A stretch of 29,419 nucleotides of DNA from Clostridia bacterium (GCA_030526225.1 JAUNDF010000021.1:1-29419), one strand, 5' to 3'; positions 804 through 26,459 are shown, numbered from the stretch's first letter. Notes: generated by a model not told the origin, from the sequence alone. Numbers and translations are program-made.

Positions 804-840
804 CGGGGAAGACAAGCTGGCATAAAGCATATGAACAAAG

Positions 841-880
841 GGGCTGTGAAATCACATTTTCACAGTCCCTTTGCTTTATC
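841..880. terminator. hairpin between convergent genes (candidate bidirectional terminator)
   Basis: gggctgtgaaa (841-851) pairs with tttcacag-t-ccc (858-869) with one bulge, followed by tttgctttatc. It lies between the TAA at 803 (+) and the TAA at 906 (-). Confidence 0.55.
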
Positions 881-905: not shown

Positions 906-2303
906 TTATTGTGCTCCAGCGCCCTTTTCCTCCAGCTTCCTTTTCGCATTTTCACTGCCAAGCTCTGCGGCCTGACGGTACCAGATGAGGGCGGGGTCAT
1001 CGATGCCGTAGCGGTGGTCAAGGCACCAGCCGACCATGTACATGGCATCCTTGTCGCCCAGCTGGGCCGACTGCCACAGCCACCGGAAGGCTTCCTCCGG
1101 GTTCTCCTCTGTGCCGATGGCGTTTTGCAGCATCATGGCGGTGTTGAACATGGCCTCGGCATCGCCGTTTTCGGCGGCCATCTTCATCCAGCGGAAGGCC
1201 TGCTCCGGGCTGCCGTTGTCCATGCAGAGATTGGCGGAGGCAATCATGGCGCGGGTGTTGCCCTGCTCTGCGGCCTGGGCAAACAGCTTTGCCGCCCGAA
1301 GGGGATCGGCTTGGGTGCCTTCGCCGTACAGCAGGCACAGGGCAAGGTTAATCATGGCCTCTGTGTTGCCCTTTTCCGCGGCTTTTTCGTAGTAGGGAAG
1401 CGCCGCCGCAACATCCTTGGCAACGCCCTCGCCGTTGATGTAGCAGTTGCCCACGGCGGCAAGCGCGGCGTCATTGCCGTAGGAAGCACCCAGTTCAAAC
1501 CAGCGGAAGGCCTCCTCGGGATTGACTTCAACGCCGCGGCCCCGCTGGTAGGAATCGCCCAGCATCAGGCAGGCCTGCTCGTTCCCAGCCAGCGCCGACT
1601 GCTCCAGCATATCCACCATGTCCGGGCTGACGGCGTTGTTTTCCGTCCATTCAAGGATGACGTTGCCGTACTGCAGGTAGCGCTTTTCGTTTTCCGTCTG
1701 CCAGTTGCGCCACAGCAGGGTGCCGGTGACGGCGGCGGCAATCATCACAGCCGAAACGATGGCGGTCACGCGGATGCGCTTCCTGCGGCGGTCGCGGTCC
1801 ACCAGCCGGTTGAAGCGCACATCCAGCAGGATGGAAATCAGCCGCAGAAATGCCTTCTGTTTGCCCAGCTCCTGCACATTCGCCCCGAGATAATGGTGGT
1901 CCTGCACGTTGCGCAGCTCGGCGGAATAGCATTCCAGCTCCGGCTTGTCCGTTTCCGGTTCGCCCTCCACAATAAAGGGGATGATGTTCTGCTCCCGCCC
2001 CAGCTGCTTGAAATAGGCGATTTCTGCCGCCACCCACGGGGAGGCCGCGCTGTTGGGGGAGCAGATGACAATCAGGTAGCGGGACAGGCGCAGCTCCCGC
2101 TGGATGGATTCCTGCAGCTCCACCCCCGCAAGGTCGGTCTGGTCGCGAAAGACCTTCAGGTGCTTGCCGCGGATGCATTGCTTTTTGCGCACATCCGCCG
2201 GAATGCGCCAGCTTTCCAGCCGGGCTTGCAGCCAGCGGCCCCAGTTCATGTCCCGGTGGCTGTAGCTGATAAAGGCATCATATTCGTATGCTTGGTTCGT
2301 CAT
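906..2303 (-). CDS. TIR domain - single TM helix - Sel1-like repeat protein
   Basis: 465-aa ORF. The N-terminus has TIR hallmarks (YDAFISYSHRD, LIVICSPNSAASPWVAAEIAYF with a conserved Glu). A basic stretch RDRRRKRIR is followed by the TM helix VTAIVSAVMIAAAVTGTLLW. About 6-7 Sel1-type repeats follow (GDSYQRGRGVEVNPEEAFRWFELGA, GNCYINGEGVAKDVAAALPYYEKAAEKGN, and others). GGAGG lies 4 nt upstream of the ATG. The ATG overlaps the upstream TGA as ATGA (2300-2303). Stop is TAA. Confidence 0.85.
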   Translation of the reverse strand: MTNQAYEYDAFISYSHRDMNWGRWLQARLESWRIPADVRKKQCIRGKHLKVFRDQTDLAGVELQESIQRELRLSRYLIVICSPNSAASPWVAAEIAYFKQLGREQNIIPFIVEGEPETDKPELECYSAELRNVQDHHYLGANVQELGKQKAFLRLISILLDVRFNRLVDRDRRRKRIRVTAIVSAVMIAAAVTGTLLWRNWQTENEKRYLQYGNVILEWTENNAVSPDMVDMLEQSALAGNEQACLMLGDSYQRGRGVEVNPEEAFRWFELGASYGNDAALAAVGNCYINGEGVAKDVAAALPYYEKAAEKGNTEAMINLALCLLYGEGTQADPLRAAKLFAQAAEQGNTRAMIASANLCMDNGSPEQAFRWMKMAAENGDAEAMFNTAMMLQNAIGTEENPEEAFRWLWQSAQLGDKDAMYMVGWCLDHRYGIDDPALIWYRQAAELGSENAKRKLEEKGAGAQ

Positions 2304-4138
2304 GCTTCCTCCGCTGCCTGCCGCATCAAATCGGGCAGGGCCAGTACGTTGCTTCGGTCCATGGCCTTGTAATCCACCTTGCCGCCGGTGACGGCGTTTT
2401 CCCGGGCAGATAAATCATCCAGCTGCTCCCATGGAATCAGGCAGGCGTGAAGGCGCTTTTGCGTATCCTTGCCGATGCGGATGGCTTCCCCTGCGGCATA
2501 GCGCGATGCCCGTTCCTGCCAGATGTCCTCCGGCATGGTGTGGTAGCCCATCACCTCATGGAAGGCGCACCAGCGAAGATGTTCTGTCTGGGCAAGGTTC
2601 TCCAGCATGTCCTCCCGGGGCGGCCAGGGCGAAGACAGCGGCGCATCCGGCGCAAGGCCCACCGCGGCCGGAAAGGCAGGGGCAAAGTCGGCGCTGGCCC
2701 TGCAGCTGATGCGGCTGAAGTAGTCACACCTTTTCCAGTTATCCTCCGCAGACAGGCCGTTTCCGGCGCAATACTGCTGATTGATGACCATGGCCAGCCG
2801 GTCCAGCTGATGGAAGTCCAGCGCATCGGAGGCGTAGATGCTCTGCCACTGCAGGTCGGTTTTGCCGCCCTCGGAGCAAAGCAGGCTTTCCTTGGTCAGC
2901 TGCACAATGGCGGGCAGATGCTCAAAGCCGCCGTACCATGCGGTGATTTCCTGTGCAATCTCCTGATTCTGCTGCTTTCGTCCGGTGGAGATGACGATGT
3001 AGTTCACCGAATCCCGGTATTCCCGCAGGAAGGCGTAGAAATCGTTGGAGCGGCCGTCGGAGGCGTGAAAGTTGATGTGATGGTTTTGCAGCAGCTGGCT
3101 GTCAAGCAGGCTGCCGGCCTGTGCATGGCTGTCGAAGACATCCGCCCGGAAATCACTGCCGCAGAACTGACCGTTCATGGCCAGCTGCTTCAGGGCGGCG
3201 CGGCCCATCTGCCCGAAGCCGATAATCACCGCGTGAACATCCTGCACGGCTCTGCCGGCTTCGTCAAAGGCGATGGTGCGGCAGGGGGGCAGGCGGCGGG
3301 TCATCAGCCGGGCGGCCAGTCCGTAGGCATCATAGGCGAATACGTTGCCAAAGCCGGGGCCGTCCTGTGCCAGAAGATATCCGGCCTGCTGCTCCTCTAC
3401 CCCTTGCACAAGCAGGGTGGTCTGCCGGGGCTGGATGCCCCTGTCCGTCAGGGCGGAAAGCAGCTGCTGGGCCCAGGCAAGGTTGCGCAGTCCGTCGGGA
3501 TGCATGGCGGCGGCATGGAGCATCCGCTTGCCCGGCACCATGCCGATGTGCCGCAGGAAGGCCGCATCCGGGCTTAAGGCCGAGGCGGATTTTTCCACCA
3601 GCCCGCCCATGGCCGCAATGGCGGATTCGGCGGCGCTGTCACAGCTGTCATCCACAAACAGCAGTGTCAGATGCTGCTTTGCCTGTCTTGTGCGGGCATA
3701 GTCGATGGATTCGCTGTTGGCGCCGAAAATTACCAGCAGATCGCCGCGGCGCAGCAGCATGGTGCGCAGCCGGTGCAGCAGCCTGCCGCCCAGCGTGGCA
3801 ATGGCTGTGCTGGCGGTGGCATAGAAGGCAAGAAAGTGGCCCACCCAGAACACGGTCATGGGGATTTCTCCCTGCCAAAGGGGCACGGACTGCACCAGCG
3901 CGGCATCGTTAACGCCGCCGAACATGCGGCAGACCGTCAACAGCGCCCGCAGAACGGGAATCACGCCCAGCCCGCCCTGCCACATGAAGGCATAGCCGTA
4001 CATCACAATGCCGATGCAGGCGGCCATGGCGGCGGAACAGCCGGTCATGCGGTTGCGGAAGGAGGTATCGGCGGCCAGGTTCAGCAGTGCCGCCAGAAAC
4101 AGGGCGGCAACCAGCAAAATGGCAACAAAGGCGGTCAT
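2300..4138 (-). CDS. multi-pass membrane protein with Rossmann-type (TrkA-N-like) modules and a C-terminal RyR-like domain
   Basis: 612-aa ORF. AGGAGG lies 8 nt upstream of the ATG at 4138. The N-terminal ~130 aa are hydrophobic helices. It has a GxGxxG motif (VIIGFGQMGRAALKQL) and a W-x-C-x-Y-F-x-R-x-S-x-RA-x-AD motif shared with the neighbouring channel. The C-terminal EHLRWCAFHEVMGYH...HACLIPWEQLDDLSARE resembles bacterial RyR (PF02026-type) domains. The family call is from memory, not from a search. Confidence 0.7.
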   Translation of the reverse strand: MTAFVAILLVAALFLAALLNLAADTSFRNRMTGCSAAMAACIGIVMYGYAFMWQGGLGVIPVLRALLTVCRMFGGVNDAALVQSVPLWQGEIPMTVFWVGHFLAFYATASTAIATLGGRLLHRLRTMLLRRGDLLVIFGANSESIDYARTRQAKQHLTLLFVDDSCDSAAESAIAAMGGLVEKSASALSPDAAFLRHIGMVPGKRMLHAAAMHPDGLRNLAWAQQLLSALTDRGIQPRQTTLLVQGVEEQQAGYLLAQDGPGFGNVFAYDAYGLAARLMTRRLPPCRTIAFDEAGRAVQDVHAVIIGFGQMGRAALKQLAMNGQFCGSDFRADVFDSHAQAGSLLDSQLLQNHHINFHASDGRSNDFYAFLREYRDSVNYIVISTGRKQQNQEIAQEITAWYGGFEHLPAIVQLTKESLLCSEGGKTDLQWQSIYASDALDFHQLDRLAMVINQQYCAGNGLSAEDNWKRCDYFSRISCRASADFAPAFPAAVGLAPDAPLSSPWPPREDMLENLAQTEHLRWCAFHEVMGYHTMPEDIWQERASRYAAGEAIRIGKDTQKRLHACLIPWEQLDDLSARENAVTGGKVDYKAMDRSNVLALPDLMRQAAEEA

Positions 4139-4171
4139 GCAATCATCCTCCTGTGGGGGATTTGTGGGGGG

Positions 4172-5641
4172 TTACTTGGGCAGCTGTTCCCAGGCCAGAT
4201 CATCCTTGGCCTGCTCCGCCTCGCTGAGTTCGTCAAAGGGAACCATGCAGGGGTGGGTTCTCAGGAGCGCATCCTTATGGGGGCCATAGCGCCAGCCGTG
4301 CAGTGCATGGAAGCGCAGCCAGCGGTCGTGCTCGTTTTGGCGGCACATGCGGCGCAGGGAAGCATCCGCCTGCTCAAAGGGCGTCCCCTGCAGGAGGGAC
4401 AGCTTGACGGGAATGTGGTCTGTGGCGGCGCGGTTGGAGGCGCGCAGGAAGCAGGAGAGTTCACCCCACGCCGGTGCAGCGGGATTGACGGCGCGGTAGG
4501 CTTCGTGCATGGCGCGGGCGGCTGCATCCTGTGTTTGCTTCATGACAAGGTCTTCGGTGTACAAATCGGCTTCTTTGCCGAAGGCTGTGCCGGGAACGGT
4601 TTCGTCATCGGTCAGCACATGCAGTGCGCCGGTGACGGGCAGCCAGCGGCTGATGCGCAGGGTCAGGGCGGCGTTCTCCTGCCGGTCATCCCCGCAGATG
4701 ATGATGCGTTTCGCGTTTTGAAGTGCTTCGGCGGTCCATGGCGCTGTGTGGAAAAACAGGCTGTCTTTGGTGCCTGCGGCTTCACCCATGGCAAAGACCT
4801 GCTGCAATCCCTCGTGCAGGCGGCGGTATTCATCCCAGTTGCCGTACAGATGCCATGCAAGGGTGCGGAAGGGCGTGAGGCAGCTGACATTCACCGCCTG
4901 ATTCATCAGGGCTTGAGCATAGCGGCCATCCCCCAGCAGAAGGACGGTGTCTTCCCCGGCTTGCAGGGGGAAGCGCTGCCAGTAATCCCGCGCACAGCTT
5001 TCACAGGCATGGAAGAAGGTCACGCCGGGGAGGGTGTCTGTTTCCACACTGCGGCAGTACAGCCGACAATCATCGGTGGATAGGGAACGCAGGGCCAGGG
5101 CATCGGCGCGGTTGGCGGCTTCGTCTTCATCCATCAGGAACAGGGAACGATGTCCTTTGGCAAAGCAGGGGAAGGCAGACAGGGCGCGAATGTCACCGGC
5201 AAAATGCACGGGGCTTCGGGCGTGACCGCCGCTTCGGCAAAGCACCGGCAGTGCTTCAGGGTGATGGCGCAGGATGTCGGCCATCAGGGTGCGGGCCTCC
5301 GCGTTATCCGAAGAGAACACAGCCCACGGACGGCGGCGGTTTTGCCACAGGCGCAGGGTGGGGAACAGGCGGCCTGTCATCAGCCCCCAAAAGGCACTGA
5401 CGGCCAAGGCCAGAAAGCCCAGACTCAACAGCAGAAATACACTGCCGATGAGCTTGCCCGCCGTTGTCACCGGATACAGATCGCCGTAGCCCACGGTGGT
5501 CATGGTGACAAGGGAGTACCAGAAGGCATCCCCGAAGGTGCGGATAGGCCCGCCGGTGCCCTGTTCAAATATGGTCAGCAGCAGCACCAGCAACAGATAA
5601 CAAACCGCGGCCGAAGCAGCGCGGCATATGGCTTTTTTCAT
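4172..5641 (-). CDS. 2-TM potassium channel (TVGYGD selectivity filter) with a cytoplasmic Rossmann-like region and a C-terminal RyR domain
   Basis: The pore is [18 protein letters not shown], flanked by helices [15 protein letters not shown] and [22 protein letters not shown]. The C-terminal [46 protein letters not shown] is a typical bacterial RyR-domain signature. I set the start at ATG 5641 (MKKAICR...) because cGGAGGttgctcccATG gives an 8-nt spacing. The ORF-track start at 5911 is an unsupported upstream extension. Stop is TAA. Confidence 0.85.
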
Positions 5642-5892
5642 GGGAGCAACCTCCGGCGCATCAAGGGTGGAAAATGATGGATTGATATCCTTTAGTATAC
5701 CCGATTCTGCGGGCAAATGCAAAGCCTTTGCGTTTTCTCCCTTGACCGGAGCAACCGTATCTTTTATAATCAAAATGACGAAATCTGCGCTTTCCTCGAC
5801 CGGAAAACACATAATATCAGAACGAAATCCCTGTTTATCCATGGAAGTTGACATATATTGACAGCATCCCGCCATCCGGGATGGGAGGAACC

Positions 5893-8800
5893 ATGCTGAA
5901 CAAGATGACAAAACTCCGTCAGCGGCTGCTGTGCCTGATGGCAGCCCTTATGCTGCTGATGACAATCCTGCCCGCAGCATCAGGTGCTGATGCACAGCAA
6001 AGCCGGGAGTGCCTTCGGGTGGGCTGGTATCAACTGGATATGTTTCAGGAGGGCATGGGCGATGATGCGCCCAAGAGCGGCTACAGCTATGACTATCTGC
6101 AGAAGGTATCCAATTATACCGGCTGGCAGTATGAATATGTGTACGGCACATGGCCGGAGCTGTTCGGCATGCTGGAGCGGGGCGAAATCGACCTGCTGGC
6201 CGGTGTATCTGCCACGGCAGAGCGGCGGCAGGTGATGCTCTTCCCCGATTCCGCCATGGGATAGGACGTATACTGCCTGTACCGCCATGCGGATGATGCC
6301 GCCCTGTCCTCGGGGGACCGTTCCCTGCTGGCGGGCAAAAAGGTGGGCGGCATTGCCGACAACCGCATGAGCGACATGGCCATGGTCTGGAGCGAGCAGA
6401 ACGGCCTCGGGCTGGAGCCGGTGCTGTTTGAGACACAGGCAGAGCAGCTGGCGGCCTTTGAGCGCGGCGAAGTGGACCTCATCTGCCAGACACAGAGCAA
6501 TGTATCCGGTGTTGTGGGCCTGAGCATGGTGGCCAAGCTGGGGGAGGAGCCCTACTATCTGGCGGTATCCGGCAAACGGCCGCAGCTGCTTGCCCGTTTG
6601 AATACGGCGCTGAACCGTATGTTCTCCATCGAGCCCTTTTTGCTGCAGAACCTGCAGTACGCCAACTATTCCTCTGCCATCACCAGCAAAGATTTGACGG
6701 AGGAGGAAAAGAACTGGGCGGCTTCGCATCCGGTGATGCGGGTGGGCTATCTCAACAATTATCTGCCCTATTCCGCCAAGGGCGAGGACGGCGAGGCCGC
6801 GGGCCTGATGACCGATGTGCTGGCGGGCATCCTGACCGCACTGGGGCTGGATAACCAGGTTCGGGTGGAGTATGTTCCGTCGGACAATTACAACGATATG
6901 ATGGCAGCACTCCGGCAGGGCGAGCTGGATGCGGCCTTCCCGGTGTACAGCCGTCCGTGGGATCTGGAGCAGCTGCAGCTGGCGGCCTCCACGCCGGTGG
7001 TCACCTGCAGTGAAAGCTTTGTGTTCCGCGGCCAGTATGACAAAAACCAGCTGAAGACCATTGCGGTTAACAGCAACAATCAGATGCAGATTGCCTACAC
7101 CCTGCGGACCTTCCCCGGGACGGAGCTGCTGCTGCTGCGCTCCATTGACGAATGTCTGGAGGCCGTGCTGGAGGGCAGGGCGGACGGTACGGTGCTCAAT
7201 CCCCTGCGCACGGAGCTGGTGACCGCAGCAGAAAGTACCGCTCCCTGTCCTATGTGCAGATGGGCACGCAGGACAGCCGCTGCTTCGGCGTAAGGGATAC
7301 GGATACGGCGCTGCTGCTGCTGCTCAACCGCGGCCTGCGGCTGCTGGGCTCCTCCTATGGCATGGAGCATTCCTACAAGTACATCGAGGCACTCAATCCC
7401 TATACCTTTGCAGATTTCCTGATTGACAATATGCTGTGGTTCGGCCTGTTCTTCCTGCTGGTGCTGGTGGTCATCATCACCCTGCTCAGCTACAACCTGA
7501 CCAAGAAGGAGCAGAACATGCGTCAGGTCAACGCTCTCAATGACAAACTGAGCGTGAACCAGCGCAAGCTGCAGGATCAGGTGAACATTGCCGGCGGTCT
7601 TTCCAACGCGTATTTCTCCGTGTATTTCGCTGATTTGGCCACCGGACGCTACAAGGCGGTGAAGGAAATGCCCCGGGTGCAGGAGCTGCTTCGGGGCTGC
7701 CGCACGGTGCAGGAGGCCATGGACATCGGTCTGCCCCACATGATTGACCATGACGATCTGGCGAAGATGCAGGAGTTTACCGACACCGGCACCCTGATTG
7801 ACCGCCTTGGGGACAGCGACAGCATCAGCGCCGAATTCCATTCCGTTGACCCGCAGCGCCCATGGTGCCGCGCCAGCTGGATTGTTGCCGGGCGCGACAA
7901 GGGCGGCGAGGCGGCCTCCGTGCTGTATGCGGTGGAGGATATCACCGCGCTGGTGGGCAAGCGCATGGCCCGCGAAAAGCAGCGCCGGGAGGCGGAAAAG
8001 CTGGAGCGCCTGCGCCTGCAGACCATGACGGAGGCCATCCACGGCAGCTTCAAGCGCGGCTTGAATGATGACGAGTTCACCTTCCTGATGGTTTCCGAGC
8101 AGCTGGCGAAAATGCTGGGCTACGAATCACCCCAGGAGATGATTGATGCCGGCAGCGGCTGCATGATGAACCTGATGGACTTCAGCGACACACGGCACGA
8201 AATCGAGACCGTGCTGAAGGACGTGCACAGCGGCAAGATGTACACCATGCACTACCGCCTGCGCTGCAAGGACGGCAGCTGGAAGAATGTAGAGGACCGG
8301 GGCCGCCTGATTCGCAACCCCGACGGCGTGGAGGAGTTCTGGAGCTTCATCGTCGATCAGGATACGCTGACCAGAACCGAGGAAGCCCTCTCCCGGGCTA
8401 ATCAGGCCAACGCGGCGCTGCAGCAGGCCCAGCAGGAGCTGGAGGCCGCCCGCGACACAGCCGAAAAGGCAAGTCAGGCCAAGAGCAACTTCCTGTTCAA
8501 CATGAGCCACGACATCCGCACCCCCATGAACGCCATCATCGGCTACACAGAGCTGCTGGGCCGCCATCGGGAGGAGCCGGAGAAATTCAGCGACTATCTG
8601 CAGAAAATCCGCTCGGCCAACAGCTTCCTGCTGTCGCTGATTAACAACGTGCTGGAAATGGCCCGCATCGAGGCCGGCAAGATTACCTTCGATGAGCAGG
8701 TGCACCGCCCCGGCAGAATCATGGATGACATCACCGCCGTGTATGAGGAGCTGATGCGGCAGAAGGGCATCGACTTCCGGGTGTCTGTGAGCATTCGCGA

Positions 8801-9185
8801 CCGGCTGATTTACTGCGATTCCCTGAAGGTGAAGGAAATCCTGCTCAACCTTGTTTCCAACGCTTACAAGTACACCCCCGCAGGCGGCAGGGTGAACGTG
8901 GAACTGACGGAGATTCCCTCCATGCGCCCGGGCTGGACCAGCGTGAAAACCGTGGTATCCGATACGGGCATCGGCATGAGCGAGGAATTCCTGAAGACCA
9001 TCTTTGAGGAATTCACCCGGGAGCATACCTTTACCGAAAACAAGATTGAGGGCACGGGCCTTGGCATGCCCATCGTGAAGAAGCTGGTGGAGCTGATGGG
9101 CGGCTCCATCACCGTGGAAAGCACACCGGGCAAGGGCACTGCCTTCACCATAATTATTTCCCCACCGGCTGGCGCAGGAAATTGA
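5893..9185 (+). pseudogene. sensor histidine kinase with a signal peptide, two periplasmic SBP_bac_3-type solute-binding domains, TM, PAS, HisKA and HATPase. It is interrupted by an in-frame TAG (6262-6264) and a 1-nt frameshift near 7232-7234.
   Basis: The standard-code pieces are 5848/5893..6264, 6343..7293 and 7152..9185. Pieces 1 and 2 share a frame, and the text reads straight through the TAG (..LFPDSAMG*DVYCLYRHADD..KKVGGIADN..). Pieces 2 and 3 join if gcagcagaaag(7231-7235) once had one more A (..ELVTAAEKYRSLSYVQMG..). The total length of 3293 nt is 3n-1, which fits one lost base. The TM helix is MLWFGLFFLLVLVVIITLL, the H-box is FLFNMSHDIRTPMNAIIGY, and the N/G boxes are NLVSNAYKYTP, DTGIGM, GTGLGMPIVKKLV and GKGTAF. 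A GGGAGG RBS precedes ATG 5893. Confidence 0.75.
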
Positions 9186-17962: not shown

Positions 17963-19323
17963 TCAATTGGTGCCGAATACAATCAGCATCAGCTCATAAT
18001 CCGGCAGCTCGCGGATTTGGGCAAGGTTTTCATCCACCCATGCGATTCTGTCCCTGGTCCACTGCTTGATGGTCGCCACCTCGCCGTCGTAGGTGGCGTT
18101 TTCATCCAGCACATACGTGGGCGGGATTTCCTCCAGCTCGCCGTTCATGTAGGCGGTCAAATCGATTTCCTGCGGATTCAGGATGGTCTTGATGACGGGC
18201 CAGATGCTGTAGTTCAGCGCCTGTGCCGCGTACTGCTTTTGACTGAGCTCGTCAATCAGCCCGCCGTCTGAAGACGCATCGGTGAGGATGGCCTTCAGCA
18301 CCTGCCAGCGCTCCAGCACAAGCTGCAGGAAGGCGTCATCCGCCAGCAGCCTCTGCAGCCAGCTATTGTTCAGGCTGGTCAGCTGGAAGCCCTCGCTGTC
18401 CTCGTTCAGTGCACCCCAGGGGCAGTAGTCGAAATCCCACAGGGGCCGAAGAACAGCTTGCTGTCCTTTGTCTTGTAGAAATAATTGTTGCCGCCGCTGA
18501 TGCCGTCGGAATTTTTGGTGACCATCTGCATCAGGAAATAATCGGCGGCGCTGGTCACATCCATGTACTCCGAGTAGTGCACGCCGTCGGCATCGCACCA
18601 TGTGCCGCTCATCAACGCTTCATCCAGCCGGCGGATAAAATCAGCTGTGTCGGCCTTTACATCATCGGCAACATCGCTCTCAAAGCACAGGGATACCTGG
18701 CTGGGAAGATTGATATCGCCGGTCACGCTCAGGCTGAGCATGCAGGCACCGTCATCCTCATCCAGATCGATGGAATTGCCGGCAATGCGCACCTGATTGC
18801 CCAGCTCGTACACGCCCAGATATTTGCCGTTCATCATCAGATTCACCGGCACCATTTTGGGGGTATAGGGCAGGCCCAGCTGCTGAGCGATGCGGTAGGT
18901 CAGCTCGTTGCGCATCATGGTGGGGTCAAGGGCGTTGGCCAAAAGCACCCAGTGCTTGCCCTTGCCCATGCCCAGCAGATTGGCGCCCTTTTCCAGCTTG
19001 AATTTGTAGGGCTTCTTGTCCTGCTTCCAGGTGGAATTGCCGCGGCCGCGGATGTACGACAGGGTGTAGGCGGTCTCCGCAGGCTGATTGCACCCGTAGG
19101 CGTTGGTGTACCCATCGGGCAGGGTGATGGTCACCGTGCCGGTGCAGGTTGTTTTGTGGTCAGGGTCGCTGTGCATGGCATCGATGCCGTCCTCATTCAG
19201 GCTCAGGGATACCAGCGGAATGCCCGTCTCCAGCAGTTTTTCGGGGGTGATGTCCTCCGCACCCAGCGCGATGCAGGGAAGCATCACCAGCAGGGCCAGA
19301 AGCCAAATCAGTTTCTTCATCAT
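17963..19323 (-). pseudogene. cotH: CotH-family protein (secreted, with signal peptide) carrying a 1-nt frameshift in a G4/C4 run at 18442-18445
   Basis: AAGGAG lies 5 nt upstream of ATG 19323. The signal peptide is MMKKLIWLLALLVMLPCIALG. CotH signatures are NSTWKQDKKPYKFKL, KHWVLLANALDPTMMRNELTYRIA, VNLMMNGKYLGVYELGNQVR and GGNNYFYKTKDSKLFFGP. The text continues in another frame as LWDFDYCPWGALNE... to the TGA at 17963. Restoring ggcccCctgtgg (C5 instead of C4) joins the frames. The length of 1361 nt is 3n-1. Confidence 0.8.
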
Positions 19324-19495
19324 GGCTGCTCCTTTTTTGAAATGCAATGGTATCATTATACCCGGAACAGGGGAAGTGTGCAACAAAGGGATGCAAAGCC
19401 CAGGGAAGGCATGTGTACCGGCATGCAGGAAGAAATGATATCCTCTGCTGTTTGCAGCCAACGCAAACAATCCGGGACATATAAATAATGAATTG

Positions 19496-19654
19496 AAATG
19501 TAAGACTATCTATGCTACAGTAATAGTAAATCCAAAGAAGTCGGGTGTAAACGATGAAGGAAATGCTGATAAAAAAGAGAATTTCTTTCCAAAGAAAATG
19601 GCGCTTAATAAACTGGGCGTTAAGCAGATAACAGCAATTATTCAACGAGTGTGA
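19496..19654 (+). pseudogene. 3' remnant of a gene; its last ~23 codons are a diverged copy of the 3' end of the 19722..21227 gene
   Basis: The frame-2 stretch ..NADKKENFFPKKMALNKLGVKQITAIIQRV ends in TGA TAA. The second copy reads ..RRIKYFFPKKMALNKLGVKEIIAFLQRK, also ending TGA TAA. There is no start codon or RBS, and the frame opens right after a TGA at 19493. Confidence 0.4.
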
Positions 19655-19762
19655 TAACAATCAGGTGTTTTGTGAACGCTGTCCTGATGAACGCACAATC
19701 TATCGCAACGAGGTGAATTACATGGGCAATTATCCGCAAACACAGCAGAAAGCTGTTGAACT
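19581..19762. repeat. direct repeat, copy 1 (182 bp, roughly 90 percent identical to copy 2, no indels)
   Basis: atttctttccaaagaaaatggcgcttaataaactgggcgttaag ... caatcaggtgttttgtgaacgc.gtcctgatgaacgcacaatctatcgcaacgaggtgaatta.atgggcaattatccgcaaacacagcagaaagctgttgaact recurs exactly 1573 bp downstream. The repeat spans a gene 3' end, the TGA-TAA stops, the spacer, the RBS and the first 14 codons of the next gene. Confidence 0.9.
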
Positions 19763-21227
19763 CTGCCAGTCCATTCGGCAGAGGCTTGATGAAATCAGAG
19801 CAACTCACATACAGTATAAAAACCGACTTGCCCAGCTTTCAACCACAGCAACGAAAAAGAGCAGAAAAGCTTTATGGTTCACATTGCTCGGCGTATTTTT
19901 AACCGAATTTGTATTTATAATATTCAATATAAGCTTCCTTCTGCTTTTTTGGCTTGAAATTGCGATTGTTGTTATCGGCATTGTAGCAGGTCGGATAGAA
20001 AAGAAAGCAATCGCCAATAAAGAAATCGAATGCATGGTTCAATAGATTCAGCTTCAGAAAGAGAAAGATAAACTTGAAGAGGAATTCCGGGCATGGTCAA
20101 AATGCGAGGATATCCTTTCCCGCTATATGCCGGTCGATGGACAGATTACCGGATAGTCTGTTCATTTTTGGGATGTTTTGCTTGGTCTCGCTGACGGTAT
20201 CAAAGCAGACATATCCAAAGCCTCCCAGCGGAACAATGTCGATAACGACTCAGAATTCGTTTGGAATACACTGCAGCGCATTCGGTTGGCTCCTGTTCTA
20301 AATGCATACCGAAAGGAACGAGTGGAGGCTAAAAAGCAAATTTCGGCTTAGCAACACAATCAGTCGGTTTCTGCGGACACCAGTCAGAAGGAAAGCTCAA
20401 CTGCGGAAAACTCAGCAGCTGATAATGGCGGCAATGAAGCATGTGGCAATGAGAACCCCGGAAGCCAGGTATCAACGTATATTCGAACATTATATGCTTA
20501 GGCTGTACCTGACTATCATGACCAAAGAGAATACTTTAAGTTCCTTTATTCAAAAAATGGCATAGGATTTATTGTAGATTACGAGTACTATAACGGATAT
20601 GCGTCTTTTTCTGCTTTATAGGTACCGGATTTATCATTGAGCAATGATGAACTGCTTGTATATGAATATGAACATAGGGTTTTTTACAGCAACATAGGAG
20701 TTGTTCAAGACGATTATCAGAGCGTCATTGGTCATTTGCCATTATGCGAACAATACATCGTAAAAGCCGATCGTTCGCAAATGAACATACAGACCATTCT
20801 CCTGTTGCTAAAAGCGTATGAATTGTCGGGGAAATCCTTATTCCCATGTCATAACAGCGCTGCACCGCAAAAATCCAATGAAAATCAACAGCAAAAGCCA
20901 ATCAATTTGAAGGGTATGATACAAGTGCAATACTCCCGTACTGCTGTCGGTATGGGTGATGAGTACATGATGGGCATTTACACCATCACGCTGCCAGAAT
21001 CTGCTACTTTAAGCGACCTGATTAATACAGCACTGGACGGCGGGCACGGAAATGACTGGCCAATTGCGCATGTAGTAGGTGACCCGGAGTGGCTTATTGA
21101 GTCTGATCGGGGGACGCTTGCCAGTGTCAGAGCGACAAGCCGTAGAATAAAGTATTTCTTTCCAAAGAAAATGGCGCTTAATAAACTGGGCGTTAAGGAG
21201 ATAATAGCATTTCTGCAACGAAAGTGA
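19722..21227 (+). CDS. hypothetical membrane-anchored protein (501 aa) whose frame contains five in-frame TAG codons
   Basis: GAGGTG lies 6 nt upstream of ATG 19722. The frame has TAG at 20043, 20154, 20349, 20499 and 20619, and no TAA or TGA until the TGA-TAA at 21225-21230. The N-terminus has two hydrophobic helices (ALWFTLLGVFLTEFVFIIFNISFLLLFWLEIAIVVIGIVAG). A coiled-coil-like stretch (QLQKEKDKLEEEF) and a low-complexity linker follow. A C-terminal ~100-aa domain (MIQVQYSRTAVGMGDEYMMGIYTITLPESATLSDLI..) is homologous to the ORF starting at 29309. The standard-code pieces are 19665..20045 and 20637..21227. Confidence 0.65.
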
Positions 21228-21335
21228 TAACAATCAGGTGTTTTGTGAACGCCGTCCTGATGAACGCACAATCTATCGCAACGAGGTGAATTATATGGGC
21301 AATTATCCGCAAACACAGCAGAAAGCTGTTGAACT
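21154..21335. repeat. direct repeat, copy 2
   Basis: This is the same 182-bp unit as 19581..19762, offset by 1573 bp. Similarity stops at 21335/19762. Confidence 0.9.
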
Positions 21336-21342
21336 TTGGTGA
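21295..21342 (+). pseudogene. truncated duplicate of the first 14 codons of the 19722 gene (MGNYPQTQQKAVEL), ending at TGA 21340
   Basis: It has the same RBS and the same ATG context as 19722. The repeat ends after codon 14 and a TGA follows two codons later. Confidence 0.6.
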
Positions 21343-21402
21343 GCTGTCAATCACAAATTTTATTAGATTCCGGTATCAAAGCGCGGCAGAGCCCTGGCAT
21401 GC

Positions 21403-22011
21403 ATGCTGCTGAGCCATATAGGCATAACCGAAGTGAAGCAAGAGCAGCCAAAGCAAAAAACAACTGAAGAATTATAGGTACTGGGTTGTCAATAGGTATA
21501 TCGTAATCTTGTAGAAACCCTTGAGCAAGCAACTCAAGTTTCCGAAGGAAATCTGGCCATGTTGGTTGAAGAACAACTGGTAAAAGATAACGGCCAGACA
21601 ATGACCATTGACGAAATTATGAAACTCACACCATAGGCTAAAGCTCAAAAGGCTGCAAAGGAACTGAAAGCAAGAGAGGAAAGGAAACAAAAACTGTCAG
21701 AGATGCTGGAAAAAATGACAGTGATTGCTGAACGGGCTGACTTTTCCTTCAGCCATGATAGGGCAATAAAGCCGGATGGGCTGCGGTTTGCAGCCAGGTT
21801 TGAAGGTTGTGGCCGTGGCCATGAAGAAACGTATTTAGGCTATGTGCTTAAAGAGGGAATGTATTATTTTTATGAAGAGGACATTGCGCCGTCGGCAGGT
21901 TACTTTACATGGATTGTGTTGACCGTACCGGCATCAGCAATCAGCAACAAGGACGAGCTGAGGATATTGTGCGTTATTTTGGAGAAAAAGAGATTCCCAA
22001 GTCGTTGGTGA
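21403..22011 (+). CDS. hypothetical protein; the frame contains three in-frame TAGs; the start is uncertain
   Basis: Frame 1 is free of TAA/TGA from 21343 to the TGA at 22009-22011 (223 codons) but holds TAG at 21364, 21475, 21493 and 21634. Candidate starts are ATG 21403 (no clear RBS), ATG 21559 (GAAGGA 9 nt upstream) or ATG 21703 (the standard-code ORF). A terminator hairpin directly follows the TGA. Confidence 0.45.
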
Positions 22012-22015
22012 TTTG

Positions 22016-22043
22016 AGACCGGGAGCAGTCCCGGTCTTCTTGT
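22016..22043 (+). terminator. rho-independent terminator
   Basis: agaccggga (22016-22024) pairs with tcccggtct (22029-22037) across a 4-nt loop. tcttgt follows. Confidence 0.6.
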
Positions 22044-22094
22044 ATATCCAAAACCCAACGCTAGATGTGGGGGGAAGAATTTTGGGGTGATTTG

Positions 22095-22103
22095 TGGTAT
22101 AAT
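22095..22103 (+). promoter_or_regulatory. extended -10 element TGgTATAAT upstream of the 22177 gene
   Basis: tggtataat is at 22095-22103, about 75 nt upstream of the ATG. There is no convincing -35. Confidence 0.45.
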
Positions 22104-22176
22104 CATGTTGATATATGTAGCTGGTTCTGTTCTAAATAGTTTTTGAACAATCAGAAGAATATGAAAGGAGAACAAT

Positions 22177-24606
22177 ATGACCGATAAGTTCCTTTCCACT
22201 TTTAATGCAATCTCTGTGCCTTCTGAAAAAATATGGGATTCCGTTTTGAATACTACCGACATGCACTTTTCATCGGATAGCTGGGCCGGTGAAACGGAAG
22301 ACATGCGGCTGGAATGTGATGCTGCGGTGCTCAAGCCCGGTGCTGAAGTGGGACAATCTATCATTCCGTATTTTGGTGCTGATGCAAATCGGTTCTTTGA
22401 AGTGTTTCCGGTTTAGTCTCCTGATTCTGCTGCGGGTAGTGCTAATGTTGCCGCTGCAGAGGATTATGCGGACTGGCTGGATGTGAGTGTGGCTGCATCC
22501 AGCGGGCTGATTGCCGGAATCGTTGATGTGCTGTTTGTTGGCGAATTCTCACTTGACCGTGCAAAGGAATACGGCGAAAAGGATGTCAATAACCTTGTCA
22601 TCAAAACAGCACAGAAATTCGGCTATGACGGAAATAATATCAAGGACGCCATAGAATGTCTGGAGAAGAAGTTTCCATTTAATTCCGATCGTTTGGTGAA
22701 TGAATTTGGCGGAGCGAAACAGCATCACTTATGGGATTTTTCACACCATTTCAGTGTGCTTGGTTTGCTGTGTGCCATCCTGACGCAGTTTACAGGGAAA
22801 GTATTTGGTACCAACAAGGATGGTATATTTATTGTAAGAGAGGTTCCGGATTATCAGATTAAGGGAAAAAACTTTGTTGAAAAAATCCTTTTCGGAACAG
22901 TCAATTGGTTCTTTCATATGGTGAGTGACATGGCAGGGTCTAGTCAGTGCATTGGGCGCGGCACAGGCATTCCCGGTCCGATTGTATCACTGCTGAAATC
23001 TGTTTCTTCTCTGCCGTTTTTCAGGAACAAAAAAATCGGAGAAACTGAGTTCCATACATGGGTGTCAAAGTTATTTAACGGGACACTTCTGGCAAAACGA
23101 AACGCAGACAACAAAATCACAGAATCCATGCCTTTTGACCTGAGAACGGAAATCGGTATTCTACATGAAGGCAGCAGGCAATTGGTTCCCGTATTGATTA
23201 ACGAAGCCATCGTCCGCGGCGTTTACTGCATTCGCCGTTTGTGCCGCGAAATTGAGCAGAAGGATATTCACTCCATTGCTGACCTTGGCAGAATTGACGC
23301 GGAAAAGGTTCTGCCCTTCAACACGCCTGCCATTAAGAGAATGTGTACCATTGCATCCGGTGTGTTCTGCGTGGTTGATTCGGTTGATGCGCTGGTTCAC
23401 TCCTTGGTCGAAAGAAAAGTATCCACATTCTTCCTGCATTTGAATTTTGTTGGTGTGGCAAGATTTGTTTTGGCCATCGGGGATGATTACACTGCATTCC
23501 TGCAGGAAACACAGATCGAACGTGAGAAATCAGAATATAGAAGCTATCGGTTTGAGCGGGAAGTGGCTAAACTTGATTGGTTTGAACTGGATGCTGAACA
23601 AACGCAGCTGCTGTATTCCCTTGAACGGCTGGTATGCCTGCACGATGCCAATAATACAAAAGACGAAAAGAAAAAAGCACAGAAAATCAAATGGCTTCAT
23701 GCATGGGAGGAAAGTGCAGTCAGGAGTCTGCGCTTAGCGCCCGGAGAAGAGCAGCATTACTTCCTTGACGATGAGGAACTGTTCAGAAGATTTTCGTCAG
23801 AGAAAAACGAGAAGACCGCTCGAATGCTGATAACATTAGAAGCAGTCACCTTCAAACCTTATTTCCCGACAAATGAAGATGAAATCGCTGCATGCAAAGA
23901 ACTGAAGCTGGAACATCGTTTTATGGATACAATCTTTCTGCAGCGGCAGCATGCTGTTCAGAGAAAAGAACTGAATGATATTAAGAATGCTTATCAGTGG
24001 TACTATGATGCTTATTCCGGGACAATCCGCAATCGTTGGCTGATTGGAATCGGCACGGCTGCCGCAACTGCGTTGACTGCCGGTGTCGCACTGCATTTTG
24101 CTCCGGCAATTGCCGTTGCTCTTGTGGGAAAGGGTGCAGCTGCTTTATCGGGTGCAGCCTTGACAAGCTTTAGCCTCGCAGCCATTGGTGGCGGTGCGAT
24201 AGCAGCCGGTGGACTGGGAATGGCTGGCGGCACGATGATTATTGCCGGTGGCGGTGCGATTGTTGGATTGCTTGGCGGTGCAACGCTCACGTCTGCGGCT
24301 TCCATGCTGCTGCTCGAGGCAGATGGATATGTGTTGAATGAATGTGCCAAGCTGCTCAGCTACAGCGAGAAGGTGCTTGTATATGAACCCAATGCCGGTG
24401 AGAGAATCAATGCCCTGGCCAACACCATCAGTACCCGACTTGATACCATTAAACAGCGTTTGAACGTTTAGAGAAAGGAATTGTTGAATACGAAAGAGCA
24501 GCAGGCGCGGAAAAAGCAGGAAGACCGCATCAAAACCATTGAAAAAAGCATCGGCTACCTGCAGGAGACGGCCAAAAAGCTGGGTGAGCTGGCAAGGAGA
24601 AGTTGA
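22177..24606 (+). CDS. large hypothetical protein (809 aa) with a C-terminal Gly/Ala-rich (glycine-zipper-like) membrane segment; two in-frame TAGs
   Basis: AAAGGAG lies 6 nt upstream of ATG 22177. TAG 22414-22416 joins the same-frame ORFs 22177..22416 and 22483..24471 (..FEVFPV*SPDSAAGSANVAAAEDYADWLDVSVAASSG..). TAG 24469-24471 is followed by 44 more in-frame codons of helical text (RKELLNTKEQQARKKQEDRIKTIEKSIGYLQETAKKLGELARRS) up to TGA 24604-24606. A strong terminator follows 38 nt later. The C-terminal region IGIGTAAATALTAGVALHFAPAIAVALVGKGAAALSGAALTSFSLAAIGGGAIAAGGLGMAGGTMIIAGGGAIVGLLGG is predicted membrane-inserting. I recognised no family. Confidence 0.7.
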
Positions 24607-24643
24607 GAAAAACAGTACGTAAAGAAAAAATCATATTAACCCA

Positions 24644-24686
24644 AAAGGCTGCGGGGAGTTTTTCTTCCGCAGCCTTTGCTTTATTT
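24644..24686 (+). terminator. rho-independent terminator
   Basis: A perfect 11-bp stem, aaaggctgcgg (24644-24654) with ccgcagccttt (24667-24677), has a 12-nt loop and the tail gctttattt. Confidence 0.75.
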
Positions 24687-24947
24687 GAAGTCGAAGTGGC
24701 GGGATTCGAAGCGAATGTCATATCTGGTTTCAAAGACGGCCACATTAAACTAGGTGTAACTGCAGAAATGACTTCGATGGTGATTTGACCCTGAAAACAA
24801 TTGCATGAAACTACATTCTATTGGTGTTGGGGTGTATTCCTTATACCCCAGTCGATTCCCGCACACTTTTTTGGAATTGGGGTATAATTTGAGAGCGTTC
24901 AGAGCAGTTTTCTTCGTTTCATTATGCATGAAAACGGAGGATAACAT

Positions 24948-25367
24948 ATGCATAATTATGACAACAAACGGCTTCCTGCTGTGATTCAGGACACCGAGAA
25001 TGGGATAACTTACATTCTCAATGGCGACTACTATTTCCCCTTGCTCTGTGATGAGGAGGACGATGAACCGCTTGGACGCTGGGGTTGGATTCGCATGCAG
25101 CATCTGATGGAGAACCATCCCGGTCGCTACTCGTATCTGCTTCTGTCCGGCCAATTGTTCCCACACCTGCGTGAAGTCGAGGAACAGGCCGAGCGTCGGT
25201 TTGATGTGTTGATGGCACAGTTCAAAGTAGCTTTGGGTATCACAGAGAAGCTGAAGGCTGCTGATCAGCTGCGTTGGGTACAGCTGATGAATTCCGCACG
25301 GCACGATGTGGAGGAAATCATCATGGACGAATTGATTTATGATGAAGGAGGGGCTGTGCATGGCTAA
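24948..25367 (+). CDS. tnpV: TnpV-like transposon-encoded protein
   Basis: A GGAGG RBS is present. The 139-aa product has the C-terminal signature GITEKLKAADQLRWVQLMNSARHDVEEIIMDELIY. I recognise this from the TnpV family of clostridial Tn4451-type and related elements, from memory and without a search. Stop is TAA. Confidence 0.7.
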   Translation: MHNYDNKRLPAVIQDTENGITYILNGDYYFPLLCDEEDDEPLGRWGWIRMQHLMENHPGRYSYLLLSGQLFPHLREVEEQAERRFDVLMAQFKVALGITEKLKAADQLRWVQLMNSARHDVEEIIMDELIYDEGGAVHG

Positions 25368-25665
25368 GAAGGTAAACAAACCTGTTGACGAGCAGAATAT
25401 CAACACGTCACATGAGCAGGATCCTGTTTGGGAGAATTGCGGGATGGATTTGAGTATGTATCCCCCTTGCATGAACGCCCAACAGTTGGCTGCTGTTCTG
25501 AAGACTCACGACAAAGCGGTGTATCGTGTCATTAAACGGCATGACTTTTTCCCCGGGTTTAAAGTGTTAGGAGCTGTTCGTATCAGCCGTGATGCCCTGA
25601 TTGACTGGATTGAGCTCCAGTGCAAGAAGCAGTTTGAAGAAGAGGAGGAAGAACAGGATGAATAA
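25360..25665 (+). CDS. helix-turn-helix DNA-binding protein (excisionase/MerR-like HTH) with an acidic tail
   Basis: GAAGGAGGGG lies 6 nt upstream of ATG 25360, which overlaps the TnpV stop. The HTH-like text is MNAQQLAAVLKTHDKAVYRVIKRHDFFPGFKVLGAVRISRDALIDWI. The tail is EEEEEEQDE. Stop is TAA. Confidence 0.65.
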   Translation: MAKKVNKPVDEQNINTSHEQDPVWENCGMDLSMYPPCMNAQQLAAVLKTHDKAVYRVIKRHDFFPGFKVLGAVRISRDALIDWIELQCKKQFEEEEEEQDE

Positions 25666-25876
25666 CCGTGAAACAAAGTTCATGGACGCTTCTGTGAGCG
25701 AGCCGGCTGTGTATACCATAAATGACATCAAGGATATCCTTCAAGTAAGCAGACCAACCGTCGATAAGCTTATTAAGCAGCATGAATTCCCCTGCTTCCT
25801 CTGGTGCGGCAAGTACAGGATTCCAAAGAAAGGTTTTGATGAATGGCTCCGACGGAAGGGAGCGGGCATGCGGTGA
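25658..25876 (+). CDS. excisionase-family helix-turn-helix protein
   Basis: GAGGAGGAAG lies 5 nt upstream of ATG 25658, which overlaps the previous stop. YTINDIKDILQVSRPTVDKLIKQHEFPCFLWCGKYRIPKKGFDEWL is typical of Xis-type HTH_17 proteins. Stop is TGA. Confidence 0.75.
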   Translation: MNNRETKFMDASVSEPAVYTINDIKDILQVSRPTVDKLIKQHEFPCFLWCGKYRIPKKGFDEWLRRKGAGMR

Positions 25877-25884
25877 TTTGTTTC

Positions 25885-26172
25885 ATGCTTAAGTTGACCA
25901 CACGGCTGGTAACTGCTCCGATGATGCTGATGGCTGGCATTATCTACATCATCGGCCATGTGGCAGCATCGCTTTCCTCCCTCGTCACCAATCTGGTGGG
26001 CACTGTTTTCCTCATCGGCTCCTTCTGCTCCTGGCGGATGGGTGTCAACACCGATACCGTTGCACTGATGGTTGTTACCGGCGTGGTTGTCCTGCTGCTT
26101 CCGATGATTGTGAAGGGCCTGCTGTATGCCGGGCTGAAGCTGATAGGGCTGCTGGCAGGATTGGTTCATTGA
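25885..26172 (+). CDS. small hydrophobic membrane protein (about 95 aa, 3 predicted helices)
   Basis: MLKLTTRLVTAPMMLMAGIIYIIGHVAASLSSLVTNLVGTVFLIGSF...VALMVVTGVVVLLLPMIV. The start is uncertain (ATG 25885, GTG 25873 or ATG 25843). Stop is TGA. Confidence 0.55.
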   Translation: MLKLTTRLVTAPMMLMAGIIYIIGHVAASLSSLVTNLVGTVFLIGSFCSWRMGVNTDTVALMVVTGVVVLLLPMIVKGLLYAGLKLIGLLAGLVH

Positions 26173-26187
26173 TTCCTGATAAGATCA

Positions 26188-26277
26188 GGGGTGTGGTCAC
26201 CATGGCCACACCCCTGTGGCCGCCATGGCCACGCTACTGGGGCCACCATGGCACCACCCCGGGGCTATCATAGCCCC
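26188..26277. repeat. GC-rich patch with three CCATGGC(C/A)C motifs about 23-24 bp apart and two inverted repeats
   Basis: The motifs are ccatggccac at 26200, ccatggccac at 26223 and ccatggcac at 26247. One hairpin is ggggtgtgg (26188-26196) with ccacacccc (26206-26214). A perfect palindrome, ggggctat-c-atagcccc, is at 26261-26277. The patch stands out from the surrounding AT-rich DNA. Confidence 0.5.
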
Positions 26278-26410
26278 ACCTCTGGTGTTTTCATGATAAC
26301 GAAATCATTTGAACTCAAATGCAAAAGTTCAGGTCAGTGAAAAAGCCAAGGACGGCTATATGGTTTCCTGAAAGAGCGTGTTTGTTTGGGCCGAAGCAGG
26401 CGTAACACTA

Positions 26411-26446
26411 AAAGTGCTGTATCGAATAGTATCGGTACAGCACTTT
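26411..26446 (-). terminator. strong hairpin terminator after the 26460..27428 gene
   Basis: A stem of about 15 bp is formed by aaagtgctgtatcga (26411-26425) and tcggtacagcacttt (26432-26446), with one G-U pair and a 6-nt loop. It lies 13 nt beyond the TAA at 26460-26462. Confidence 0.65.
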
Positions 26447-26459
26447 CGATTGTGTAGGC

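Follow-up and report, generated by a model that had tools for sequence, protein, structure and literature searches.

When a gene for a TIR protein lies directly behind two genes for RyR-domain membrane proteins, do the three genes form a unit, and what could then pass between their products? The question is raised by positions 906 to 5,641 of a contig from a Clostridia bacterium (GCA_030526225.1 JAUNDF010000021.1:1-29419); the window that we analysed is the whole stretch of 29,419 nucleotides. On its minus strand, g1 encodes a K+ channel with an RyR domain, g2 a paralogous membrane protein and g3 a TIR protein. A first-pass annotation had put these genes forward as a candidate signalling or defence module. 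We find that the three genes belong together across genomes, and we favour, with somewhat better than even confidence, an outside-in TIR module whose nucleotide product gates membrane effectors of the RyR/RCK type.

The linkage was followed from g2. A profile scan with one genome per species gave 259 hits, of which 80 non-redundant loci were examined by searching six-frame open reading frames (ORFs) with the proteins of the window and an iteratively built TIR profile. The gene calls in these loci are crude ORF calls and nearly all loci are contigs of metagenome-assembled genomes (MAGs), mostly from rumen and gut; they span Lachnospiraceae, Oscillospiraceae, Christensenellales, Butyrivibrio, Solobacterium and relatives. 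Among all 80 loci, a g1-type channel is adjacent to g2 in 55 (69%) and a TIR gene in 52 (65%), with both present in 34 and neither in 7, and most of the latter are truncated contigs. In the 38 loci that extend at least 3.5 kb past the cluster on each side, the channel is found in 26, the TIR gene in 30 (79%), both in 21 and neither in 3. The genes occur in seven orders (g1-g2-TIR, g2-g1-TIR, TIR-g2, TIR-g1-g2, TIR-g2-g1, g1-TIR-g2 and g2-TIR), and many junctions within the clusters overlap by 4 nt. Of the 60 TIR ORFs found in ~1.2 Mb of locus DNA, every one is no more than 3 kb away from a cluster and shares its strand; the finding of zero TIR genes elsewhere in the flanks of the 80 loci serves as an internal control. 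Starting in reverse from distant g1 homologues (36-39% identity), three of three contigs have g2 directly upstream and TIR-membrane genes nearby. With the co-occurrence seen in the 80 loci and from the side of g1 as well, the three genes form a conserved module, and we conclude that their linkage is not coincidental. A fourth conserved gene was not found in the module, and no flanking family recurs more than three times. At one g2-g1 locus (L102:1543-3534) the cluster adjoins the K+ uptake genes trkH and trkA, and TIR-LRR genes there are convergent, not co-directional.

Across genomes, the gene that stays constant in the module is g2 and not the K+ channel, which is present in about two thirds of the loci; in this respect, the earlier picture of the module is corrected. 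An exhaustive profile search returned 411 representatives of g2-like proteins (E<=1e-30, clusters at 50% identity). These ~411 clusters are without annotation and would constitute a new family of membrane effectors.

In the window, the genes and the sites around them are arranged as follows.

4172..5641, minus strand: g1, 489 amino acids (aa), starting at an ATG behind GGAGG
4139..4171, minus strand: spacer of 33 nt between g1 and g2, with an AGGAGG ribosome-binding site 8 nt ahead of the g2 ATG
2300..4138, minus strand: g2, 612 aa
906..2303, minus strand: g3, 465 aa, its start overlapping the g2 stop as ATGA
5694..5723, minus strand: promoter-like site TTTGCA-18-TATACT, ~50 nt upstream of g1, a consensus match only
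836..873, strand-neutral: 16-bp hairpin resembling a bidirectional terminator, which separates g3 from a convergent kinase gene

The ORF calls and coordinates agree with the earlier description of three co-directional minus-strand genes with a 33-nt gap that carries AGGAGG, and the ATGA overlap of the g2 stop and the g3 start is present in the sequence. The trio is bracketed by the promoter-like site (5723-5694) and the terminator hairpin (836-873), and the GC content of the operon (0.61-0.64) agrees with that of the surrounding chromosome. The contig itself is part of an uncultured Clostridia MAG.

Two features characterize the protein encoded by g1.

5480..5506, minus strand: selectivity filter, T46-D54 (TMTTVGYGD), of a two-helix K+ pore
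4202..4363, minus strand: RyR domain of the Repeat12 type, residues 427-480, carrying H438, W441, H463 and K479/D480

We conclude that g1 is a K+ channel composed of a pore, tandem RCK-like domains and a C-terminal RyR domain. The TTVGYGD filter and the RyR-type C-terminus had been recognized before, and both are confirmed by Pfam matches to Ion_trans_2 (E 7e-14) and RyR (37.6 bits vs a cut-off of 27.4, E 2.8e-9). The filter is near-invariant among 118 homologues (G51 and G53 in 118/118, Y52 and D54 in 117/118). An AlphaFold2 model inferred from these homologues has a predicted local distance difference test (pLDDT) score of 95.8, and its best Foldseek matches are GsuK (E 2e-7), MthK, Slo1/Slo2.2 and KcsA. 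The Rossmann motif of g1 is close to GxGxxG (G237, G239, A242), and its RyR part matches Repeat12 of the animal channels RyR1 and RyR2 with E-values of ~1e-13 to 3e-19. Like the RCK-gated K+ channels GsuK, MthK and Slo (BK), g1 has a two-helix pore with a TVGYGD filter that is followed by two Rossmann-type, RCK-like domains. Unlike these channels, g1 and g2 bear an additional C-terminal RyR or RyR-like domain, and g2 has a conserved but unrelated four-helix domain in place of the pore.

For g2, three regions are distinguished.

3755..4138, minus strand: membrane domain, residues 1-128, with conserved YGYGY, CRMFGGxND and H101
2834..3247, minus strand: second Rossmann/RCK-like domain, with an invariant GFGxxG (G307, G309, G312) and D336
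2339..2626, minus strand: RyR-like domain, approximately residues 505-600, with E519-H520-x-R522-W523, H564, E580-N581 and D594

No match to g2 was found in Pfam, NCBIfam or PADLOC, and a comparison of the g2 family profile to PDB sequences returned nothing significant except a weak match to a motif of RyR1. The AlphaFold2 model of g2 (pLDDT 94.8) begins with four membrane helices, which are followed by two Rossmann-type domains and a helical C-terminus, with GsuK and Slo channels as the leading Foldseek matches (E 2e-4). The g1 and g2 families can be aligned across their whole cytoplasmic parts (hhalign probability 99.8%, E 2e-30, 390 columns). Thus, g1 and g2 are paralogues, with the K+ pore of g1 exchanged in g2 for a different, strongly conserved membrane domain. 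The RyR sub-domains alone also align (hhalign 97%, E 9e-11), with an insert of 19 residues in g2. The first-pass annotation had noticed a GxGxxG motif in g2 and a C-terminus related to the RyR domain of g1; both are confirmed by hhalign and by the invariant G307/G309/G312, and the motif W..F.R.S.RA..D that it had seen in both proteins is real (hhalign E 1.5e-12). Furthermore, D336, the acidic residue after strand 2, is kept in 93 of 118 g2 sequences. GsuK is a tandem-RCK K+ channel, and the matched entries were solved with NAD or ADP bound. As g2 keeps both the Rossmann GxGxxG and the acidic residue, and as structures of GsuK contain NAD and ADP, the existence of a second nucleotide site is plausible.

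Three other interpretations of g2 and its homologues were considered; the first was not supported and the other two were rejected. The membrane domain could have been a degenerate K+ pore; its YGYGY aligns with the filter of g1, but hhalign gives only 3.7% probability against the g1 pore, and g2 has neither a K+ selectivity filter nor a match to Ion_trans_2. The helix with W..F.R.S.RA..D could have been a degenerate first RyR repeat that arose by internal duplication, for which the hhalign probability is <1%. Lastly, the g2 homologues P0410 and P0417 (~1150 aa) are not g2-g1 fusions; their C-terminal extension comprises a further membrane helix, a papain-type Peptidase_C1 domain and a lectin-like domain.

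The third protein, g3, is divided by a single membrane helix.

1935..2273, minus strand: cytoplasmic TIR_2 domain, residues 11-123, with the catalytic-type Glu94 (SPWVAAEI)
1713..1769, minus strand: membrane helix, residues 179-197, with 8 Lys/Arg before and 3 after, N-terminus inside
939..1586, minus strand: extracytoplasmic Sel1 domain with five repeats (Pfam)

In Pfam, g3 matches TIR_2 (E 1e-16), ThsB_TIR (E 5e-8) and five Sel1 repeats (E 4e-38). Because 8 Lys/Arg precede the helix and 3 follow it, and because no signal peptide was found in g3, the TIR domain is cytoplasmic and the Sel1 repeats lie outside. Thus, g3 is a type II single-pass membrane protein. The earlier identification of a TIR protein with a conserved Glu context (SPWVAAEI) holds, whereas the topology of a membrane receptor with an outside sensor domain had been overlooked.

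The same layout is found in the other TIR proteins linked to g2, which range from ~270 to 1411 aa: an N-terminal TIR domain, a single membrane helix 15-50 residues further on (~55/57) and a variable C-terminal domain. In 55 of 57 linked TIRs, Lys and Arg are more frequent ahead of the helix than behind it, with means of 5.5 and 2.1. The outside domains include Sel1, TPR, BspA-type LRR/DUF285, LRR_4, MORN, RHS and beta-propeller. Of 58 cluster-linked TIRs, 95% keep the catalytic-type Glu (E94 in g3), and conservation extends to FISY, D54 and S82. This conservation of the Glu suggests an enzyme rather than an adaptor. In their architecture, the proteins resemble Toll-like receptors, in which one membrane helix likewise joins an ectodomain of repeats to a TIR domain in the cytoplasm, and many TIRs of the clusters have LRR ectodomains. 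Unlike in Toll-like receptors, the TIR domain is N-terminal in a type II membrane protein, so that the order is inverted; the catalytic Glu is kept, implying an enzyme; and the clusters contain no TIR adaptors. The resemblance therefore concerns the architecture alone and does not imply that the receptors as a whole share an origin.

Some loci depart from this simple arrangement. In Solobacterium-type loci (L060:11840-14506; L103:7550-10402; L061, L066 and L069), a secreted protein of 888-950 aa is encoded between g2/g1 and a pair of TIR-membrane genes. This protein has a signal peptide and a Pro/Thr-rich linker, no other Pfam domain was found in it, and it may be an extra outside component. 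The TIR pair in these loci consists of a short protein of ~280 aa and a TIR-TPR protein of ~680 aa.

A pointer to what might connect the TIR to its neighbours comes from phages. According to two preprints of 2026, 2'cADPR, 3'cADPR and cADPR (cADPR, cyclic ADP-ribose), all made by TIR domains, are bound with nanomolar affinity or hydrolysed by RyR (PF02026) domains of phage proteins (PMC13232231; 10.64898/2026.06.04.730250). In RyDEP, the ligand is contacted by H75, W78, H100 and D117 (PMC13232231). RyR Tad binds 1''-3' gcADPR (glycocyclic ADP-ribose) with a dissociation constant of 43 nM and also 1''-2' gcADPR and cADPR, with H129/W132, K147/H154 and K170/D171 as the binding residues (10.64898/2026.06.04.730250). 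The RyR domain of g1 belongs to the same Pfam family and is of the same Repeat12 type; it shares 40-51% identity over ~50 residues with phage RyR proteins, and 242 phage records match it. The ligand residues of g1 and g2 were mapped by alignment with gp81 of mycobacteriophage Aegeus. The four RyDEP residues correspond to H438, W441, H463 and D480 in g1 (4/4), which are kept in 117-118 of 118 sequences. In g2, three of four are kept, namely H520 and W523 (118/118) and H564 (112/118), corresponding to H75, W78 and H100. Based on this conservation, g1 would have the full binding and catalytic set, whereas g2 is a candidate binder without the acid residue, as it lacks the Asp of the catalytic dyad of RyDEP. 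RyDEP and RyR Tad, both small, soluble and dimeric, serve counter-defence by sequestering or hydrolysing the signal of the host; in g1 and g2, in contrast, the domain forms the C-terminus of membrane proteins of the cell itself, whose genes neighbour a TIR gene, and it would be the receiver for which the signal is meant. Aegeus gp81 itself (L100:1303-1713) is an RyR protein of 136 aa whose gene is flanked by the two NARP1 NAD+-salvage genes, a position that has also been described for RyDEP in phage DyoEdafos, and its H75, W78, H100 and D117 agree with the published RyDEP residue numbers.

The idea that a TIR product acts through the RyR domains had been part of the first-pass annotation. It has gained outside support, in that phage RyR domains bind and cleave TIR products and the residues involved are conserved here, while the gating itself stays conjectural. 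The RyR domains of g1 and g2 probably read an ADP-ribose signal of the TIR, in a bacterial parallel to the animal pathway from cADPR to the ryanodine receptor. In the animal axis, which includes SARM1, NAD+-derived cADPR is likewise linked to an ion channel with Repeat12 RyR domains. Direct binding of cADPR to the animal RyR is not established, and that channel conducts Ca2+. The module described here differs in its K+-type pore and its single RyR domain per chain, and the link is genetic (an operon) and not physiological.

The domain composition, the topology, the paralogy, the linkage and the conservation of ligand and catalytic residues are established here. Beyond these, we infer that the TIR is active, which signal it makes, that these RyR domains bind this signal, how gating occurs and what sets the system off, as follows. 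A cue from outside would bind or cluster the repeat ectodomain of g3 and so bring the TIR domains together. The clustered TIR domains would switch on cleavage or cyclisation of NAD+, and the product would be a nucleotide derived from ADP-ribose, most likely a cADPR isomer. The C-terminal RyR domains of g2 and g1 would bind this nucleotide, and the RCK-like Rossmann sites may contribute. The RCK assembly would then shift its conformation, such that the K+ pore of g1 opens and the membrane domain of g2 is activated, and the outcome would be ion flux and a changed membrane potential. In this scheme, g2 would be the primary receiver and effector, and g1 a paralogous K+-conducting partner that is often added. 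One protein has the proposed partners in a single chain: P0449 (L105:2120-4267) comprises TIR_2, two membrane helices and an RCK-RCK-RyR module, and its gene immediately follows that of a full g2 homologue (L105:131-2107).

Several observations weigh against the outside-in reading. TIR-membrane-Sel1 homologues are solitary amid housekeeping genes in three of four sampled contigs, so the partners are not obligatorily linked, and g2 and g1 occur without a TIR gene in 5 of the 38 well-flanked loci. Furthermore, g2 stands alone in three Butyrivibrio isolates (L068 YAB3001, L076 MC2021 and L080 AE3009). As P0449 is a singleton on one contig of 5.8 kb, we regard it as supportive rather than decisive. 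The RCK-like call for g1 and g2 rests on fold-level E-values, with TM-scores to GsuK of only 0.3-0.49. The profile searches that had been suggested recovered Ion_trans_2 and RyR in g1 and TIR_2 and Sel1 in g3; no Pfam match to TrkA_N or TrkA_C was obtained in g1 or g2, and g2 matched no profile at all. Its RyR-like domain scores under the Pfam threshold, the position of RyDEP D117 is occupied by Asn, Ser or Thr beside the conserved E580, and a Foldseek search of g2 against viral models gave no significant RyR match, a phage RyR protein reaching only E 0.14. To our knowledge, the known Thoeris TIRs are soluble and sense intracellular events, and no bacterial precedent was found for an outside sensor on a TIR enzyme. 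In addition, every step of the scheme beyond the gene linkage is an inference.

Two side observations concern these loci. Butyrivibrio sp. YAB3001, MC2021 and AE3009 are the sole cultured strains among the 80 loci. The solitary TIR-membrane-Sel1 homologues at L086, L087 and L088 (45-48% identity) are single genes amid housekeeping genes with no g1 or g2 nearby, which suggests that the receptor family is wider than the three-gene module.

Which other explanations could account for the same genes? The main mechanistic rival is sensing of the NAD+ level, where the TIR would be a plain NADase and the Rossmann sites of g1 and g2 would bind NAD+ as in GsuK. The channel would then answer falling NAD+ or rising linear ADP-ribose (ADPR), and the RyR domains would bind or clear ADPR and not a cyclic isomer. 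This fits with the dinucleotide motif that is invariant in g2 and near-complete in g1, with GsuK entries bound to NAD or ADP as the best structural matches, and with the full His/Asp dyad in g1, which makes RyDEP a glycosidase. However, it leaves unexplained why the RyR residues that contact (g)cADPR are strictly conserved on both proteins, and phage RyR domains are reported to prefer cyclic isomers at nanomolar levels (PMC13232231; 10.64898/2026.06.04.730250). We consider it unlikely as the sole explanation, and it is compatible with a nucleotide messenger rather than exclusive of it. Much less probable, in our view, is that the TIR domain works as an adaptor without enzymatic activity, like that of animal Toll-like receptors, with g2 and g1 regulated by direct contact in the membrane and no nucleotide involved. 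Although all partners are membrane proteins from adjacent and often translationally coupled genes, and the fusion P0449 joins TIR and RCK-RyR in one chain, the TIRs conserve the catalytic-type Glu, FISY, D54 and S82. Neither g1 nor g2 has a TIR domain for a TIR-TIR contact, and their nucleotide-contacting RyR residues are invariant (g1) or mostly kept (g2).

The most sceptical explanation is that the genes serve ordinary K+ homeostasis beside an unrelated TIR gene, which the first-pass annotation had kept as its fallback. RCK-gated K+ channels are common housekeeping proteins, the flanks consist of housekeeping genes and the L102 cluster adjoins trkH/trkA. Yet a TIR gene is adjacent in 65-79% of loci, in dozens of species and seven gene orders, and none occurs elsewhere in the flanks; a TIR::RCK-RyR fusion exists and start/stop overlaps are common. 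The linkage in 80 loci refutes a coincidental neighbour, and we consider this explanation highly improbable.

What the outside-in module would do for the cell is less clear. A response of a stress or immune type to a cue from the envelope or from phage has, in our estimate, a chance close to but not above even. The more specific case of abortive infection as in Thoeris is possible and slightly disfavoured: phage would be sensed at the surface or through envelope damage, and K+ and membrane effectors would depolarise and arrest the cell. The logic of a TIR with a membrane effector matches Thoeris, and type X Thoeris, which pairs a TIR with an ion channel, protects B. subtilis. The sensor domains vary greatly and in a modular way, the genomic surroundings of the cluster are unrelated from one species to another, and RyR-domain sponges and hydrolases are widespread in phages, as the 242 phage records suggest. 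Against this stand the GC content, which does not differ from the surrounding chromosome, the sensor domain outside the cell, unlike known Thoeris sensors, and the lack of any PADLOC model for g1 and g2. The flanks do not offer a defence-island context either. The 137 flanking ORFs carry 133 different Pfam families, mostly housekeeping, with essentially no defence genes, so that the defence-island test proposed in the first-pass annotation fails. Among these ORFs, six PADLOC matches (E<=1e-10) were obtained, that is, three to mad3, two to mad2 and one to DrmC; the mad3 matches, and probably also the mad2 matches, look like HSP90-type look-alikes.

The nearest described system is Thoeris type X, which consists of the TIR protein ThsB and the ion channel ThsK and was found by a screen that demanded enrichment near defence genes (10.64898/2025.12.03.692087), an enrichment that is lacking for the cluster here. 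The remark in the first-pass annotation that no system of this composition is known thus needs qualification, as a TIR paired with an ion channel has been described, although the cluster is not a member of type X. Both have a TIR gene beside a gene for a membrane or ion-channel effector that is presumed to read an NAD+-derived signal. As in Thoeris, the cluster has a TIR with the catalytic Glu and an adjacent gene for a putative effector, and the RyR domain with its conserved ligand residues is a candidate binding domain. However, in a metagenome type X locus (L093:3358-4495), the TIR is a soluble ThsB_TIR protein of 168 aa and the effector (L093:3358-3984) has 208 aa, Ion_trans_2 only and a filter-like motif TLTYGGF. 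The TIR of the cluster is membrane-anchored, of the TIR_2 type, 465 aa long in g3 and carries a large repeat domain outside the cell; its effectors, of 489-612 aa, have tandem RCK-like and RyR domains and usually come as two paralogues, and the cluster lacks a defence-island context. Membership of type X was thus rejected, as the cluster lacks both defining features, the small soluble ThsB_TIR of the type II/VII/X TIR cluster and the small pore-only effector. In L093, the effector gene immediately precedes that of the ThsB TIR and has a DNA methylase gene as a neighbour. Two tblastn searches of plasmids with type X TIRs returned only type II (Macro) systems. In the literature searched, from which subscription journals were mostly absent, no description of a link between a bacterial RyR-domain channel and a TIR gene was found. 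Within TIR-nucleotide signalling, the new features are the membrane receptor-type TIR, the RyR-domain receivers and the new effector family.

The swappable sensor domains of these TIR proteins suggest that bacterial TIR signalling can be triggered from outside the cell and not only by intracellular events. A bolder and rather doubtful version is that the clusters are bacterial counterparts of Toll-like receptors wired to ion channels, in which a ligand of the ectodomain would activate a TIR cyclase whose cADPR-type product gates the RyR channels. The ligands could then be phage particles, envelope fragments or molecules of a host or neighbour. In this version, the module would be the first pathway in bacteria by which TIR signalling is driven from outside. 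It would also be a prokaryotic form, and possibly an ancestor, of the animal axis from cADPR to the ryanodine receptor, in which the Repeat12 RyR domain was the receptor for cADPR from the start. If the outside-in reading is correct, the bacterial RyR domain, whose binding of TIR-made cADPR isomers was shown, in phage proteins, only in 2026, would gain a cellular role as the receiver of channels encoded beside a TIR gene. Whether and how cADPR acts on ryanodine receptors is a long-standing question that could then be addressed in bacteria, where a small and tractable system shares the domain. The family, which is mainly confined to uncultured Clostridia of gut and rumen, would escape screens based on defence-island enrichment.

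The remainder of the window contains two regions of minor interest. Divergent from the operon, and sharing with it a promoter region of 245 bp, lies a hybrid sensor kinase at 5848-9185 on the plus strand, continuing to 11676. It is split over the ORFs 5848-6264, 6343-7293 and 7152-9185, which carry two solute-binding-type domains, PAS, HisKA and HATPase, and it represents either a frameshifted pseudogene or a MAG assembly error. It is followed by a response-regulator-PAS gene and a GAF-GGDEF gene. Towards the end of the window (~19000-29419), the GC content falls from ~0.60 to 0.37-0.49. This stretch encodes a Fic-domain protein (27679-28881) and an ORF of 662 aa without a Pfam match (22483-24471), and it is probably foreign or mobile DNA.

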